Below, piece after piece: positions 9,001-15,000 of a stretch of DNA of 64,000 nt. Made by a program: the position numbers. Positions within the stretch are counted from its first letter, which is position 1, and each line of letters starts with the position of its first letter. Source of the DNA: an uncultured Gammaproteobacteria bacterium (lineage in GTDB: Bacteria; Patescibacteriota; Microgenomatia; JAUYPR01); assembly GCA_964372495.1 (NCBI GenBank), contig CAYJQU010000001.1:100810-164809 (forward strand), in the 5' to 3' direction.

Positions 9001-12000
9001 CATCTTGGTCACCCAGATGAACAGGTGGGCAACAAATGGGAGGACTACCGCGAATTCACTCGTTAGAAGTGCAACAGATATAAGTATCGGAGCAAAGATG
9101 CGTGCTTTGTAGGTATGACGTACAAGCGCCATTAGGAAAATGAGAACCCAGAAAATAAGCAGGACCAGAGAAAACTCAGCTATCCATGTGACTGCATACA
9201 AGTGTGCTGGATGCACCGCGTAGAGTGTGGCAATCATGAGCGAGGTATTTGCCTTTACCGAAAGTGTGCGCAGAAGCGATGCAAGCAATGTAGCATTGAC
9301 GGTATGAAGAGAAAGTGCCGCAAGATGGTACCAGAAGGGATTGAGTCCAAAAACAAGTTGCAGGATGCCTATTGGAACGTAAACGCCCAATGGGCGGTAA
9401 AAACCATCATAGGTGTGAGGCGCAAACCAGGAAAGAGTATCAAGTGGCTTGTCTAGGCGACTTCCTAGGAGATGTCCGAAATCATCCTGGACAAAGTACA
9501 CTGACAGCGCTGGTGAGAACACGATGAGAACGACTGGTGCGAGTAGTAGTACTGTTTTAAGCCACGCTGCCATGCTTCTGTTGCCACTCAAGCACACATG
9601 AGGCTATATAGCTGACTTGTGTTTCTGTCAGCGATGGATAGAGTGGAAGGCTGACCAGGTGGGAACCTATTGATTCGGTCACGGGGAGGTTGGCTGAGGA
9701 AGCAAAGATTGGGAAGCGATGCAAGGGTTGAAAATGCACTGAGCACTGTACATTGCGCACGCGCATCCACCCAATAAATGAATCTCGCTTCTGTACCAAG
9801 ATGGGGTACAGATGTAACCCCCTATTCGTAAGGCCAAGAAGCTTGTTGTATTGATTGACGATGCGCTTGCGAGCGGCAAGAAAGTGCGGGAGCCTGGTAA
9901 GTTGCACTCTGCCGATGCTGGCAGCAATATCTGTTAAATGGAAGCTCCATCCTGCAAAATCAATCCCATATTTCCACGAGTTCCCTTGGTGGCGCTCGGA
10001 TGTATCTTTTGTAATTCCAAAATTTCGCGCCTTCGTAAGCCATGTAGCTTTTTCAGGATCACCGATTGCGATAGCGCCACCGCGCCCGGTAGTCATATTC
10101 TTCGTTGCATGAAACGAAAATGCCATGGGGTTCCCATCAAAACAGCCTTTTTGGATGTGATGGGCAGAGTCCACGAAGACGGTCGTGTTCGGGTAATTAG
10201 TATACGCTTGATTTCCCGCATAGTGCACTGGTATGATCGCTTTCGTTTTAGCGGTTGTGCGCTTGTCAACATCCGTAGGGTCAAGGCACAGATGGGGGTA
10301 GGGTGTAATGTCGGCAAATACTACGGTCGCGCCAACATGAAATACCACCTCCGCGGTTGCAGCAAAGGTAAGCGATGGAACAACGACCTCGTCTCCTGGC
10401 CCAATGCCATAGGCCTTAAGGAGCAGAAAGAGCGCTTCAGTGGCTCCCGAAACAGCAACTATGTGTGGGGCATTTGTGTAGTGCGCAAGTTCTTGTTGCA
10501 GCAACTCTACCTCGTTGCCTTCAATGAGCCACCCAGAGCGAAGGACTCGTAAAACAGCTGCTTCCTCCTCTCTTCCGATTGAAGGTCGACAGAAGTCAAT
10601 GACTCCCATGCAATTAGTGTACCACACCAGGATACTGTATACTGTGTGCATGGAAAAGCGCTCGGTAATCATTGTGGGCGCAGGTAAGGCTGGAGAAGAA
10701 GTTAAACGTATTATTGACGGCAGACTTGATATTCAACTTATTGGATTTGTTGATGATGACAGACCTGCGAGGTCGACAGCTCCTATATTAGGAACTATTT
10801 CGGAGCTGCCCTCGATTGTTAAACGCCACTATGTTTCTGAGGTTATTGTTGCCATCCCGTCAGCTTCGGGCGACCTGATACGTACCATTGTGCAGTCGAC
10901 GTTAAATTTGCCAGTTATGGTCCGCATCGTACCGCGGTTATCCGAGATAGTACTCGGTCGGGTACATCCTTCTCTTATTCGTCCAGTACAGCCTGAGGAT
11001 CTAGTAGGGCGTACCGTTGTACAAAAAGATGTAAGGAAACTTGCGAAGGCTTTTTCTGGCCGCTGCATATTGATAACAGGTGGGGCCGGGTCCATTGGGT
11101 CAGAAATTACTAAACAGCTTCTTTACCTACGACCAAAACAGGTGGTTATGTACGACTGGAGCGAGAACAGAATATTCCAGATGAATCAGTATGTAAGTGA
11201 GCTTAAGAAAGGCACGAAAGTGCATGGTGTCATCGGCTCGATACTCGATAGCGATAAATTAAGTCGCATATGCCAACACTATCGAGTAAATGATGTTATT
11301 CACGCAGCTGCATATAAGCATGTGCCGCTTATGGAGGAATTTCCCGAAGAAGCGGTACGGAATAATATTTTTGGCACACAGCGTGTCCTTGCAGCAGCAA
11401 AAGACTCTGGTGTGAAACGGTTTCTTCTTATATCTACCGATAAAGCCGTGAACCCTTTCTCCGTAATGGGTGCGTCGAAATATATAGCAGAATCACTGAC
11501 GCTCGCGGCAGATACTAAAGACATGCATGCATCCGCCGTACGGTTCGTCAATGTGGTGGGAAGCGAGGGAAGCGTGGTACCACTTTTTGAGGCACAGATT
11601 CGTAATGGAGGTCCGGTGACGGTGACACATCCAGATATGGTGCGGTATCTCATGACGCCGCAAGAAGCGGCTCAGCTAACGTTATCTGCTATGGCGATCA
11701 TGAAGGGTGGAGAGCGGTTCATGTTAGAGATGGGAGAGCCAATAAAGATTGTCGATCTTGCTCAATTGCTGATACGTTTACATGGTCTGCGGCCGAATGT
11801 AGACATACAGGTCAAGTACACTGGGATTCGGCCAGGAGAGAAACTTGCGGAAGAGTTAAGTACGAACTCTGATGCGTTCAGGAAAACGGCCGTACCTGGG
11901 ATATGGGAAATGGTAGAAAAGACGATACCAAAATCGCGGCTAATGAGGTTGACAAACACGTTAGAGAAGGTACCGCGTTCTGAGAGCCAGCGCTTAAGGA

Positions 12001-15000
12001 GTTTGTTACTTTCATACTCATGAAAAAGACAGTGACGGTTGTGCTTACCTGTCTTGATGAGGCTGAGCTGGTACGTGAGGCTATTGTAAAAATTCGCTCG
12101 GTCCTCGATAAGACAATCTTTGAACCGCACTTTTACATTGTAGATGACGGAAGCCGCGCGCCGGAGAGGACCCGAGGAATCCTCGGACGTATGGCGAAAG
12201 TGCGCATCGCATACCACGGAAAAAACCTCGGGCGTGGCAGATCGGTATCAGATGGTATCCTTGCTGCCCAAACTCCCTACGTGGCATTTGTCGACCCGGA
12301 TCTTGAGATTCCTGCTGACGAACTCTTCGATTGTTTTCTTGCGCTTGAGGAAGGAGCGGACGTGGCTATTGCCAAGCGGTTCTACCAATTGGCCCTTAAA
12401 GACCTGGTTCGCGTCGTGCTTAGCAGGGGGTATAGCATCCTAGTCCAGTTGCTTCTTGGCCTACCGTATACAGATACGGAGGCGGGGCTTAAAGCATTTA
12501 AGGTCGAAAGGATACGCCAACTTGTAACGCAGGTAAAGGATGCACGTTGGTTTTGGGATACAGAAATCGTGGCCCGGAGTCACTATGCGGGACTTCAGAT
12601 AACTGAGGTTCCAACAGTGGTAGTCAAACGCGATGATAAGCAGACAACCGTACATCTGTTTCGGGACGCCTGGGTTTACTTCTGGTCACTCTGGAGCTTC
12701 CGCAGAACCGCCCGCGCCCTGCGCCGCTCATAATTAACAGATTCTGTGGTGCCGACTTGTTATCATGTTTTAAAACATTGGTACATGGGCAGATGGCTCT
12801 GCTACTGCTAAGACCGAGGTTGACGCCCTGAGGGTGTTAAAAGCGGTGCGAACAGAGAACTTTACTCTTATAGTATTTCATGTTAGGGTAGAGCTGTGCG
12901 ATCGGTATTTTCTGAAGTAACGTTGGGAATGCTGGTGCGGTACCTTCTCTATCTTCTGTGGGAGTTTGTATTTTGGTTCATGTTCCTTCCTCCCCTAAGG
13001 ACAATCTGGCTCCGTCTAGGTGGCGCATCGGTAGGCGGCGACAGCGTTATCCATAGTATTAAGCTGGTCAACATATACGCTACCGGACTTGGCAATTTGC
13101 GGATCGGCAATAAATGTTTTTTAGGAGATGAGATACTTATTGATCTTTCGGGGCCTGTTATCCTTGAGAATCATGTAACGGTTTCAATGCGCTCTATCAT
13201 ATTAAGTCACATGAATGTGGGTTTTAAGGATCATCCATTGAAGGTGCACTATCCAAAAACAATTTTTACCACTACCGTAAAACGGGGTAGCTTCATTGGT
13301 GCCAATTCCACGGTTCTTCCTGGTGTTACGATTGGGGAAGAATCGCTGGTTGGTGCCGGTTCGGTGGTAACAAAAGATGTCGCAAGTAAAACCTGTGTAG
13401 CTGGAGTGCCTGCCCAGGTTTTGAAAAAGCTTGTGTGAAAAGGGCACTATATATCTACTACTTCTTTCTTATTATTCTTGCACTCCTCGTTCGTATTATT
13501 TGGCTTGATAGCGATCCCCCAATACTACTCTCGTATGGAAGTATTGGGGATGAAGGGTTGTGGGTGCACAATGCACGGTTGTGGGTGCTCTTTGGCTCCC
13601 GCACGATTGATGATTTCTCCCATGACTATGCTATAGCACCACTTTTTTCGTGGGTGGTTGAGGCGAGTTTTCGGCTGTTGGGGGTGAATTTCGTCGCTGC
13701 GCGGCTTCCATCCGCACTGTTTGGTTTCCTGGCTGTCTTGTTGTCAGCCGATATGATACGCCGTGTAGCTTCTGGAAAATTGCAGAAAATTGCTCTCTTA
13801 TTTATTGTAATCCATACGCCATTGCTCATACATAGCCGCTTGGCAGTTGGCGAGTCTCTCACGATCTTTTTTCTTATCGCCTGCTGGTGGCTGTGGCTGT
13901 ACGGAGCTAACCGATTCGCCTCATTGGCGTCAGGTGCCATGCTTGGATTAGCGATACTTGCAAAGCTGACTTCCATTCAGTACGCAGCGGTATTTGCTGT
14001 ATTGTGCGGTATTTCCTGGTTTGCCTACCGCGAAAGAACAAAGGTTAAAGCATTCATGACAGGTTTTTTTATCGTTGCGGTGGCCGCTGCAGCTTATTGG
14101 TGGACTGAGCGGGAATCAATCATTACTATTTTAGCTACGTTCGCCCGGGTGTATTCGTGGGCCAATGTGTCGTCGGCTACCGCTTTGGTAAGTCAACTTG
14201 TATTTCATCCGTTTTGGGGGTCACCGTTCTTTGTGGGTGTTGTGTGGCTCTGTGCGAATCGCGCAGCTTCGCATATTGGCCAACTGCTCCGTTTGGGACG
14301 TAGCTGGTTTATGTCAAGCGACCCACTCATTGTTAGCAGTCTCGTTTGGGTAACCGTAGGTATTATACCCTTACTGTTTGGGGCAAACCACCCAAGCACT
14401 CGATTCTACGCCTTCGTTCTCCCCATGGTTGTGCTGGCATTATCGAAAACAACACTAAGAGAAGGTGTGGTCCCCCGGTTGGTTCAACAACTACGAGTGC
14501 CTGCAGCACTCTTTCTCATCTCGCTTGCAGGTAGCAAGATACTTCTCGCTTTTGCTCGCAGAACTGTTATCTCGGATGAGCTTCGGGAGCAGATGTTTTG
14601 GCCGGCTTTCCTGGTGCTTCTTCTTATTGCCCTCCTATCGGTGTACGTAAAACGCTCGCTGGCGACCTTTGTTGCAAAACAAACAGGTGTCATTTGGCGG
14701 TGGGCGCTGGGGTTGACTCTTCTATCTATTTTTTGGAACTACGTTGCGGGGTTTGTTTCACTCAGTCTGGGTGCAAGATATCTTCTCGTGGCGGCCACCG
14801 CGACCACCCTGTGGCTTTCGCGCAGATACATGACGCGTGAAGCAGTTTTTGGCGTACATGTGGTCATCAGCATGATTTCTCTCCATATGCTGTTTAGTCA
14901 ACCCTCGTTTACGATTCGGGATGCGTCTCGTGAACTGGGAAACAAAACGTACCGGGGGGAGTACACGACAGGATTTTTAGCACACGAATTGTCGATTGAG

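Follow-up and report, generated by a model that had tools for sequence, protein, structure and literature searches.

Introduction

Does a glycan locus that holds every component family of a bacterial protein glycosylation system encode such a system? The question is raised by a 64,000-nucleotide stretch of contig CAYJQU010000001.1 (assembly GCA_964372495.1, positions 100,810 to 164,809 of the forward strand), hereafter the window, from whose first nucleotide all coordinates are counted unless another locus is named. A cell-surface glycan super-locus of about 54 kb occupies positions 1417-54299. A sequence-only reading of the window had singled out a DegT-family aminotransferase, a CapD/PglF-like 4,6-dehydratase and a left-handed β-helix (LbH) acetyltransferase as a bacillosamine-type precursor module, and had paired it with a matching PglC-like initiator, a flippase and a Wzy_C/PglL-like protein elsewhere in the locus. 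Under the resulting model of Campylobacter/Neisseria-type pgl glycosylation, the three enzymes would make UDP-N,N′-diacetylbacillosamine (UDP-diNAcBac), a phosphoglycosyltransferase (PGT) would load the sugar onto undecaprenyl phosphate, further glycosyltransferases (GTs) would extend it, a Wzx-like protein would flip the product, and the Wzy_C protein would serve as an O-oligosaccharyltransferase (O-OTase) resembling PglL or PilO.

For domain annotation we applied Pfam to 53 window open reading frames (ORFs); family models came from NCBIfam, solved relatives from the Protein Data Bank (PDB) and membrane segments from hydropathy. Pfam confirmed all of the domains that the sequence-only reading had named, each where it had been placed. 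The amino-sugar module nonetheless looks wired to lipid-carrier decoration rather than to protein glycosylation in the style of Campylobacter or Neisseria. Our best explanation, which we hold with about as much confidence as doubt, is a self-contained amino-sugar decoration module that lies in a variable arm of the locus and works by an Arn-like, three-component lipid-carrier route. This route is favored because the module combines start and stop codons that overlap, a short GT2 similar to polyprenyl-phosphate transferases, a WcaF-type LbH predicted to associate with the membrane, and a GT-C glycosyltransferase.

A Divergent Dehydratase and Aminotransferase Pair

Precursor synthesis would depend on two genes and the spacer that separates them:

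9557..10609, minus strand: DegT-family pyridoxal phosphate-dependent sugar aminotransferase, 350 aa (Pfam DegT_DnrJ_EryC1, 254 bits)
10610..10649, no strand: divergent spacer of 40 bp with conserved motifs, possibly back-to-back promoters or operators of two operons
10650..12023, plus strand: PglF/WbpM-type UDP-N-acetylglucosamine (UDP-GlcNAc) 4,6-dehydratase without transmembrane (TM) segments, 457 aa (Pfam Polysacc_synt_2, 345 bits, plus N-terminal CoA_binding_3)

The start codons picked for both genes fit the N-termini of their families, and the 40-bp divergent arrangement that they leave is the one described by the sequence-only reading. That the dehydratase is PglF-like speaks for the pgl model. 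Among solved structures it scores highest against Campylobacter jejuni PglF/WlaL (5bju, 252 bits), ahead of CapD (169 bits), CapE (140 bits) and PseB/FlaA1 (126 bits), with the STDKA and MGxxK motifs conserved in the alignment to PglF. It falls within the large WbpM/PglF subfamily, from which a retaining mechanism is predicted. Hydropathy detects no hydrophobic or TM segment in it, and a search of the genome contigs with this protein returned only two distant, irrelevant matches.

The aminotransferase carries the SFHATK (SFHxxK) lysine motif and is probably a UDP-4-keto-sugar C4 aminotransferase. Its best NCBIfam models, PseC (213 bits, cut-off 423) and ArnB (188 bits, cut-off 631), are matched far under their cut-offs, and its best PDB matches are ArnB 8sng (149 bits) and the putative capsular polysaccharide biosynthesis protein 6ewj (144 bits); no PDB or NCBIfam entry named for PglE or for a bacillosamine aminotransferase occurs among its matches with E<1e-20. 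Two other pathways were considered and rejected. ArnB, of the 4-amino-4-deoxy-L-arabinose (L-Ara4N) pathway, and perosamine synthase are both among the best PDB matches, with scores far under the equivalog cut-offs, and the partner enzymes, an ArnA-type decarboxylase for the former and a GDP-mannose dehydratase for the latter, are absent. The outcome that the sequence-only reading had set as its own refutation, a pair of GDP-perosamine or UDP-Ara4N enzymes, thus did not materialize.

The product of PglF can be aminated in either configuration, giving UDP-bacillosamine or, with WcfR as the aminotransferase, UDP-2-acetamido-4-amino-2,4,6-trideoxygalactose (UDP-FucNAc4N) (PMC11626204). Because the dehydratase is PglF-like and its pairing with a DegT gene recurs elsewhere, UDP-2-acetamido-4-amino-2,4,6-trideoxyhexose is a plausible product here, in either the bacillosamine or the FucNAc4N (also called AATGal) configuration at C4.

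Within the spacer, AGTGTACCA and ATACnGTATACT are kept in the 41-bp spacer of a related locus, L010 (L010 6133-6173), where the flanking proteins are 54-78% identical, and each motif stands 6-9 nt from a start codon. A consensus promoter scan found no match within the 40 bp. The motifs would fit back-to-back extended -10 promoters with leaderless mRNAs, or a shared operator, and their conservation suggests that the DegT and dehydratase operons are regulated together.

The Rest of the Plus-Strand Module

Downstream of the dehydratase, three further genes are oriented in the same direction, of which the GT2 and the GT-C gene had been missed by the sequence-only reading:

12020..12733, plus strand: short GT2 (GT2_237), 237 aa, probably a polyprenyl-phosphate glycosyltransferase of the DPM1/ArnC/PpgS/PgfS type
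12896..13438, plus strand: LbH1, WcaF-family LbH acetyltransferase, 180 aa (Pfam Hexapep; one N-terminal hydrophobic helix)
13435..15306, plus strand: predicted GT-C glycosyltransferase of the PMT_2 family, 623 aa, 13 TM (Pfam PMT_2, 26.2 bits, cut-off 26.1; 13 hydrophobic segments)

The start of GT2_237 overlaps the stop of the dehydratase gene (12020-12023), and that of the GT-C gene overlaps the stop of LbH1 (13435-13438). NCBIfam ranks AglJ and MftF first for GT2_237, then PgfS, the dolichyl-phosphate (DolP)-hexose transferase and PpgS, with E from 4e-10 to 4e-6 and all under cut-off; MftF acts on a soluble substrate and is not a polyprenyl-phosphate enzyme. The sole PDB match is Pyrococcus dolichyl-phosphate mannose synthase (DPMS; 5mlz, E 0.004). 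The closest paralogue in the locus, GT2_239, matches PgfS (71 bits), ArnC (61 bits) and PpgS, and GT2_237 groups with such polyprenyl-phosphate transferase-like paralogues, apart from the elongating GT2s of the locus.

The acetyltransferase departs from the pgl model. LbH1 matches the WcaF subfamily PRK10502 at 70.7 bits over residues 29-178, and this subfamily, whose named members are polysaccharide O-acetyltransferases, is also the best match of the second LbH protein of the locus, LbH2. Pfam finds a PglD_N domain in neither. The NeuD/PglB/VioB model TIGR03570 is matched in its C-terminal part only, at model positions 155-202 for LbH1 (residues 127-174) and 98-202 for LbH2, with 63 and 53 bits against a cut-off of 161. 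PglD itself (3bss) gives LbH1 only 26 bits; the best PDB match is 7s43, a 165-aa chain deposited as an ‘N-acetyltransferase’ (58 bits), followed by WxcM-like 4mzu and QdtC. This weak similarity to 7s43 and to the QdtC and WxcM-like chains (44-58 bits) makes N-acetylation by LbH1 possible. Of the proposed bacillosamine-type module, then, the PglF-type dehydratase and a plausible DegT pairing stand, and the third enzyme does not: a PglD/NeuD-type acetyltransferase is absent, both LbH proteins being of the WcaF type.

The same WcaF assignment is what one would expect under the main rival to our explanation, a Wzx/Wzy-type or related surface polysaccharide in which the amino sugar would be added in the cytoplasm by a Leloir glycosyltransferase (possibly GT2_237), the Wzy_C protein would polymerize the repeat units, and the LbH proteins would O-acetylate the polymer. 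The locus does contain a PGT, Wzx-like and Wzy_C proteins and numerous GT4 and GT2 genes. This alternative fits less well with the GT2 of the module, which groups as described with polyprenyl-phosphate transferase-like paralogues and not with elongating GT2s, or with the conserved order of GT2, LbH and GT-C and the overlaps between start and stop codons. Domains of Wzz/polysaccharide co-polymerases (PCP), GNVR, bacterial tyrosine (BY) kinases and the LCP family (LytR_cpsA_psr) are moreover absent from the 53 ORFs scanned. We regard a polysaccharide of this kind as possible, if rather unlikely.

The GT-C protein probably acts as the module's extracytoplasmic transferase, as judged from its family, predicted topology and position. 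It is a near-orphan: neither the PDB nor NCBIfam offers a relative, and its one full-length homologue with substantial identity (50%) has the same place in the same gene order, in L010.

Conservation of the Module in Relatives

The arm at 3474-25221 is collinear with L010 at 40-78% protein identity, and the shared genes include the divergent DegT and PglF pair, the GT2, the LbH and the GT-C; the spacer between the divergent genes measures 41 bp there. Identity to the L010 orthologues is 78% for DegT, 75% for a carbamoyltransferase, 66% for the membrane protein memb447, 63% for GT2_237 and 50% for the GT-C. Between its GT2 and LbH genes L010 has an extra gene (8280-9443) for a polytopic membrane protein of 387 aa that matches no Pfam family.

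More distant relatives bear on the pairing of the first two enzymes. The nearest soluble homologues of the dehydratase, of about 475 aa and about 47% identity, are followed directly by a DegT gene in all three contigs examined (L007-L009), and on this ground we regard the pairing as recurrent; the DegT proteins are 36-39% identical to that of the window. In these contigs the pair is followed by GT4 genes and not by a GT2/GT-C pair, which suits the polysaccharide alternative. A metagenome search with the DegT protein yielded relatives of at most 40% identity and no further copies of the module. Among 80 distant metagenomic DegT loci, those with a canonical layout (e.g., L018, L021, L023 and L029) have a PGT immediately beside DegT and a PglF-like gene. 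In the window, unlike these loci, the PGT lies 30-40 kb from the DegT/PglF module, and the distance counts against the pgl model.

Proposed Route for the Amino Sugar

In the decoration route that we favor, the soluble PglF/WbpM-type dehydratase would convert UDP-GlcNAc to UDP-2-acetamido-2,6-dideoxy-hexos-4-ulose, as homology indicates, and the DegT aminotransferase would convert this to UDP-2-acetamido-4-amino-2,4,6-trideoxyhexose, as indicated by homology together with the recurrent gene pairing. GT2_237 may then move the sugar onto polyprenyl phosphate. LbH1, which would associate with the membrane through its N-terminal helix, may acetylate the 4-amine or a hydroxyl, and after flipping, the PMT_2 GT-C may add the single sugar to an extracytoplasmic acceptor, for which the conserved core glycan of the locus, another wall polymer or a surface protein are candidates; memb447 may take part. 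The PGT, LbH2 and the Wzy_C protein would serve a different, deeply conserved glycan. The first two steps are predicted from strong homology, and the later ones are suggested by gene order and weak family matches. The logic would be that of the Arn (L-Ara4N), PpgS/Rv3779 (galactosamine, GalN), GtrABC, CsbB/YfhO and Pgf pathways, and not that of en-bloc pgl transfer.

Several points weigh against this explanation. Enzyme activities and the structure of the sugar are predicted from sequence alone. The matches of GT2_237 to polyprenyl-phosphate transferases are weak (20-40 bits) and below all curated cut-offs, such that it could be an ordinary Leloir transferase, and the Pfam score of the GT-C protein sits right at its threshold. 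No small flippase of the GtrA or ArnEF type was found, nor any unannotated small multi-TM ORF in the window. The synteny of the module is confirmed in one other genome only, L010, whose 387-aa membrane protein gene is absent here: its place is taken by a 162-bp gap (12734-12895) in which tblastn detected no remnant. Lastly, a polyprenyl-phosphate-linked donor of a 4-amino-4,6-dideoxy-N-acetylhexosamine (HexNAc) has, to our knowledge, not been described.

The Minus-Strand Arm Beside the Aminotransferase

DegT is the first gene of a minus-strand operon that continues with memb447, a short-chain dehydrogenase/reductase (SDR) epimerase, the carbamoyltransferase, a DUF5989 ORF, a DUF6798 protein, a PpgS-like GT2 and a C-methyltransferase. 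Two of its members require separate description:

8254..9597, minus strand: memb447, GT-C-like membrane protein, 447 aa, 8 TM, no Pfam match
5070-5249, minus strand: DUF5989 ORF, 59 aa, directly downstream of the carbamoyltransferase

The start of memb447 overlaps the end of DegT, and 17 Wzy_C fusion proteins, which are described below, have C-terminal modules similar to residues 24-190 of memb447 (E down to 5e-14). At 1417-7156 a TylC3-type C-methyltransferase (Methyltransf_13/14), the NodU/CmcH-type carbamoyltransferase and the DUF5989 ORF are clustered, and these tailoring genes suggest a C-methylated and/or carbamoylated sugar.

This arrangement raises the alternative that DegT works within its own operon toward an amino sugar of another, heavily tailored kind, and that the PglF product is used elsewhere, e.g., by reduction to N-acetylquinovosamine (QuiNAc) or N-acetylfucosamine (FucNAc). 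DegT heads the operon and overlaps memb447; the operon order is kept in L010, with DegT and the carbamoyltransferase as its most conserved members; the PpgS-like GT2 (79 bits) and the DUF6798 membrane protein would provide the arm with a lipid-carrier pair of its own; and the TylC3-type C-methyltransferase points to a 4-keto sugar as an intermediate. Such an operon would nevertheless need a keto substrate for DegT, and the arm's sole 4,6-dehydratase candidate is the PglF-like enzyme on the other side of the spacer. Among NCBIfam models, the SDR at 7280-8248 fits a GalE-type epimerase best and not a dehydratase. The dehydratase-DegT pairing also recurs elsewhere. We give this alternative a slim chance, and it is compatible with the decoration route rather than exclusive of it.

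A Conserved Core Cluster and Its Phosphoglycosyltransferase

The remaining components that the pgl model requires lie mostly in a second group of genes, which we term the core cluster and which recurs in members of the Candidate Phyla Radiation (CPR):

39013..54299, plus strand: CPR core glycan cluster of 14 genes (GT4, GT4, LbH2, GT2, Wzy_C, PMT_2, GT4, GT2, GT4, GT4, ManC, PGT, DUF4012; then recO)
41891-42508, plus strand: LbH2, WcaF-type LbH protein (Pfam Hexapep)
43374-45032, plus strand: Wzy_C protein, 552 aa, a WaaL-fold membrane protein of the Wzy_C family (Pfam Wzy_C, 44 bits, cut-off 31.7)
45032-46456, plus strand: PMT_2 protein (PMT2_474)
50647-51774, plus strand: ManC
51783-52433, plus strand: small monotopic PGT, 216 aa (Pfam Bac_transf, 197 bits, single domain)
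52437-54299, plus strand: DUF4012 protein

The cluster is collinear, at 29-59% protein identity, in L004 (5391-21593), L006 (6282-21623) and L011 (5171-21141), and recO directly follows it in three of the four contigs (the window, L006 and L011). No PglF-like gene occurs in the roughly 10-kb flanks of the cluster in L004, L006 or L011; L006 carries instead a module of DegT, GFO_IDH_MocA and ATP-grasp genes. Because the cluster is collinear in these three contigs without a PglF-like gene in its flanks, the PGT, LbH2 and the Wzy_C protein are assigned by gene order to a separate, deeply conserved core pathway, and the amino-sugar module to a variable arm. This separation is evidence against the pgl model; the absence covers only about 10 kb around the cluster, which must be set among the weaknesses of the decoration route. 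Our literature search did not find a description of this CPR core cluster. LbH2, which had been taken for a second copy of LbH1, is a paralogue with 30% identity. A stretch of 720 bp (40099-40818) lies between two GT4 genes that directly adjoin each other in L004 and L006; it has no Rfam or tRNA match, and its only content is a minus-strand ORF of 234 aa (40291-40995) without a Pfam match, which overlaps the start of the next gene.

The PGT is WbaP-like rather than PglC-like in its sequence features; an exact look-up of this protein gave no more than a 1.3-kb contig. It aligns over its full length and in one stretch with the catalytic domain of WbaP (8t53, 141 bits), and in two pieces with PglC (8g1n, 104 bits), an alignment that ends at PglC residue 189 of 205, two residues before the end of the PGT; its NCBIfam matches are the EPS_sugtrans and WbaP subfamilies. 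PGTs specific for diNAcBac are marked by a GLLLP loop, a C-terminal tail of about 14 residues with F197, and an aromatic box of Y118, Y122, W150, F154 and F197 (PMC10186338). The window PGT has no GLLLP string, a WbaP-like stretch of 30 residues (…YKLLHDPRITRVG) taking the place of the loop, and it lacks the C-terminal extension with F197, ending where WbaP ends. The ‘matching PglC-like initiator’ of the sequence-only reading is thus neither PglC-like nor part of the module that it was to match.

The Wzy_C Protein

The Wzy_C protein is predicted to be a polymerase or a ligase, and could be either. It combines a Wzy_C domain with a WaaL-like fold, its structural neighbors in the PDB being WaaL and SEDS proteins only; the fold, which is common to O-OTases, is in keeping with the pgl model. 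Neither the protein nor a 50-member profile of its family retrieves a sequence relative from the PDB. The family is CPR-specific and highly conserved (mean column identity of 56% over 50 sequences, with many invariant charged residues). Invariant positions include R42, R44, R169, H192, R239, R421, D461 and R466. A library clustered at 50% identity contains 256 of its representatives at E<1e-30. Neisseria PglL carries the domains PglL_A and Wzy_C_2. Neither PglL_A (PF15864) nor Wzy_C_2 (PF11846) is found in any of the 50 family members, the window protein included, where Wzy_C is the only match at E<=0.01. Residues 457-475 hold the invariant motif AESTDNDxLRxLGETG, which, reading from the motif only, we take to resemble the H-N-x-x-L…E-x-G of O-antigen ligases, with the invariant D461 where the catalytic His would be expected.

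Fusions provide a further clue. Of the 150 best representatives, 64 are 800-1270 aa long and join a Wzy_C module to a second polytopic module (e.g., P0009/L012 3551-6130, with others among P0250-P0399). The second modules sort into three groups, with 37, 24 and 3 members; 17 are memb447-like, and the group of 3 is homologous to PMT2_474, which follows the Wzy_C gene in the window. No Pfam GT-C family was detected in the second modules of the eight fusion proteins scanned. The frequency of these Wzy_C-GT-C-like fusions leads us to propose that the Wzy_C enzyme works together with a GT-C, and the fusions do not separate polymerization from ligation.

The host bears on the acceptor. Homologues that span the whole Wzy_C protein, with identities of about 48-50%, carry the names Curtissbacteria, Saccharimonadales and ‘Patescibacteria group,’ and on this basis the source bacterium is assigned to the CPR/Patescibacteria and predicted to be monoderm. 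DUF4012 is enriched in CPR bacteria, for which the absence of an outer membrane is described (PMC6744442). A WaaL role directed at lipid A is therefore not expected. A monoderm cell offers no lipopolysaccharide as a ligation target, which favors the pgl model, as does the retention of the core cluster across deep CPR lineages, which is more like a general glycosylation or wall-polymer system than a serotype-variable capsule. The DUF4012 gene can be read the other way, the domain having been tied in the literature to capsular and exopolysaccharide (CPS/EPS) loci, in agreement with the polysaccharide alternative.

The flippase of the pgl model is the following gene, which lies outside the core cluster:

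26747..27967, plus strand: Wzx-like 12-TM protein by hydropathy, candidate flippase (Pfam Polysacc_synt, 41 bits, weak; no NCBIfam match)

It does possess the expected domain, and its assignment as a Wzx flippase is weak. Taken together, the sequence-only reading was right that all component families of pgl are present and that a Wzy_C-family protein is among them. The three features that define pgl nevertheless fail, at the LbH, at the PGT and at the Wzy_C protein, whose likeness to PglL does not extend to PglL_A or Wzy_C_2. We consider the pgl model very unlikely. A related proposal would keep protein as the acceptor: the core cluster next to recO may be a general O-glycosylation system for surface proteins, in which the CPR Wzy_C enzyme moves a conserved oligosaccharide to pilins or envelope proteins while the variable arms add strain-specific single sugars outside the membrane. 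Nothing here specifically favors protein O-glycosylation, and we judge this version improbable.

Other Features of the Locus

At least 14 polytopic GT-C-like proteins are encoded in the window according to Pfam and hydropathy, annotated as PMT_2, YfhO-like, DUF2079 or DUF6798, or without annotation, and their density is unusually high. Four short GT2s (237, 238, 239 and 255 aa) match mainly polyprenyl- or dolichyl-phosphate glycosyltransferases (ArnC, PgfS, PpgS, AglJ and the DolP-hexose transferase), and every one of them adjoins one or two GT-C-like membrane genes, one of which is YfhO-like:

2684-5063: short-GT2/GT-C pair
12020-15306: short-GT2/GT-C pair of the amino-sugar module
18338-21532: short-GT2/GT-C pair
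28770-32713: short-GT2/GT-C pair

The tailoring genes of the locus comprise methyltransferases, the TylC3-type C-methyltransferase, the carbamoyltransferase and its partner DUF5989, and a number of SDR enzymes. One of the latter (22821-23762) resembles GDP-L-fucose synthase, with 278 bits to the Fcl model and under its cut-off; the ManC protein of the core cluster is of the GDP-mannose pyrophosphorylase type, and no GDP-mannose 4,6-dehydratase is recognizable in the window. On its 3′ side the glycan locus gives way to recO, the gene for a glycyl-tRNA synthetase and then the first genes of a dcw-type cluster:

57289-62488: start of the dcw-type cluster (MraZ, MraW, FtsL-like ORF, class B penicillin-binding protein, GNAT acetyltransferase, Mur ligase)
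57289-57690: MraZ
58567-58869: FtsL-like ORF
60665-61180: GNAT acetyltransferase

Rfam and tRNA scans of the whole window were empty. GC skew is positive in nearly all 2-kb bins, in minus- and plus-strand gene blocks alike, and the cumulative skew climbs almost monotonically; across 1-64000 it gives no sign of a replication origin, a terminus or a foreign island.

Implications

Bacterial glycan loci commonly encode dehydratase/aminotransferase pairs for sugars of the 4-amino-4,6-dideoxy-HexNAc kind, and the module is in itself ordinary. If the decoration route is true, delivery by a polyprenyl monophosphate and a GT-C would extend decoration of the Arn/Gtr type to a new class of sugar. The core cluster and the Wzy_C-GT-C fusions are more noteworthy than the amino-sugar module: if confirmed, CPR bacteria with tiny genomes keep a deeply conserved glycan cluster of 14 genes beside recO and dcw genes, with a CPR-specific WaaL-fold enzyme, frequently joined to a GT-C, at its center. 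CPR cells are attached to hosts, and whether the surface glycan is joined to protein, wall or lipid bears on their episymbiosis.

Comparison with Known Systems

The nearest precedents for the first steps are C. jejuni PglF/PglE/PglD and Neisseria PglD/PglC/PglB-ATD, with which the module shares a PglF-type catalytic domain, a DegT aminotransferase alongside and an LbH in the same operon. Each component differs from its counterpart, however. The dehydratase lacks the N-terminal TM segments of C. jejuni PglF and WbpM; no PglE entry matches the aminotransferase as well as PseC, ArnB and 6ewj do; LbH1 is WcaF-type with a hydrophobic N-terminus, and not a PglD_N plus LbH protein; and no PglC-type PGT is adjacent. 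Among small monotopic PGTs (PglC and the catalytic domain of WbaP), the window enzyme is typical in its length (216 aa), its one Bac_transf domain, its re-entrant hydrophobic helix at the N-terminus and its region of the PRP-type nucleotide motif, and it stands closer to the Gal-1-P transferase WbaP (141 bits) than to the diNAcBac-specific PglC (104 bits). In comparison to WaaL, PglL, PilO and Wzy, the Wzy_C family of the window is CPR-specific, without sequence relatives in the PDB, and often fused to or followed by a polytopic GT-C-like module.

Also close are the Arn system (ArnB/ArnA/ArnC/ArnD/ArnEF/ArnT) and its analogues PpgS/Rv3779, GtrABC, CsbB/GtcA/YfhO and Streptococcus mutans Pgf; the module resembles these in encoding side by side a 4-aminotransferase, a short GT2 similar to polyprenyl-phosphate glycosyltransferases, an enzyme for acyl transfer and a GT-C of the PMT_2/ArnT class. 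ArnA-like, ArnD-like and small flippase genes were not found in the window. As the host is predicted to be a monoderm CPR bacterium, the acceptor cannot be lipid A, and the steps after the nucleotide sugar are the ones that we infer here. With its PglF-type dehydratase, the module would yield a 6-deoxy-HexNAc derivative and not a pentose derived from UDP-glucuronic acid (UDP-GlcA). The likeness to Arn-related three-component systems extends beyond the module itself, since further short-GT2/GT-C pairs and a YfhO-like protein are present in the same locus.

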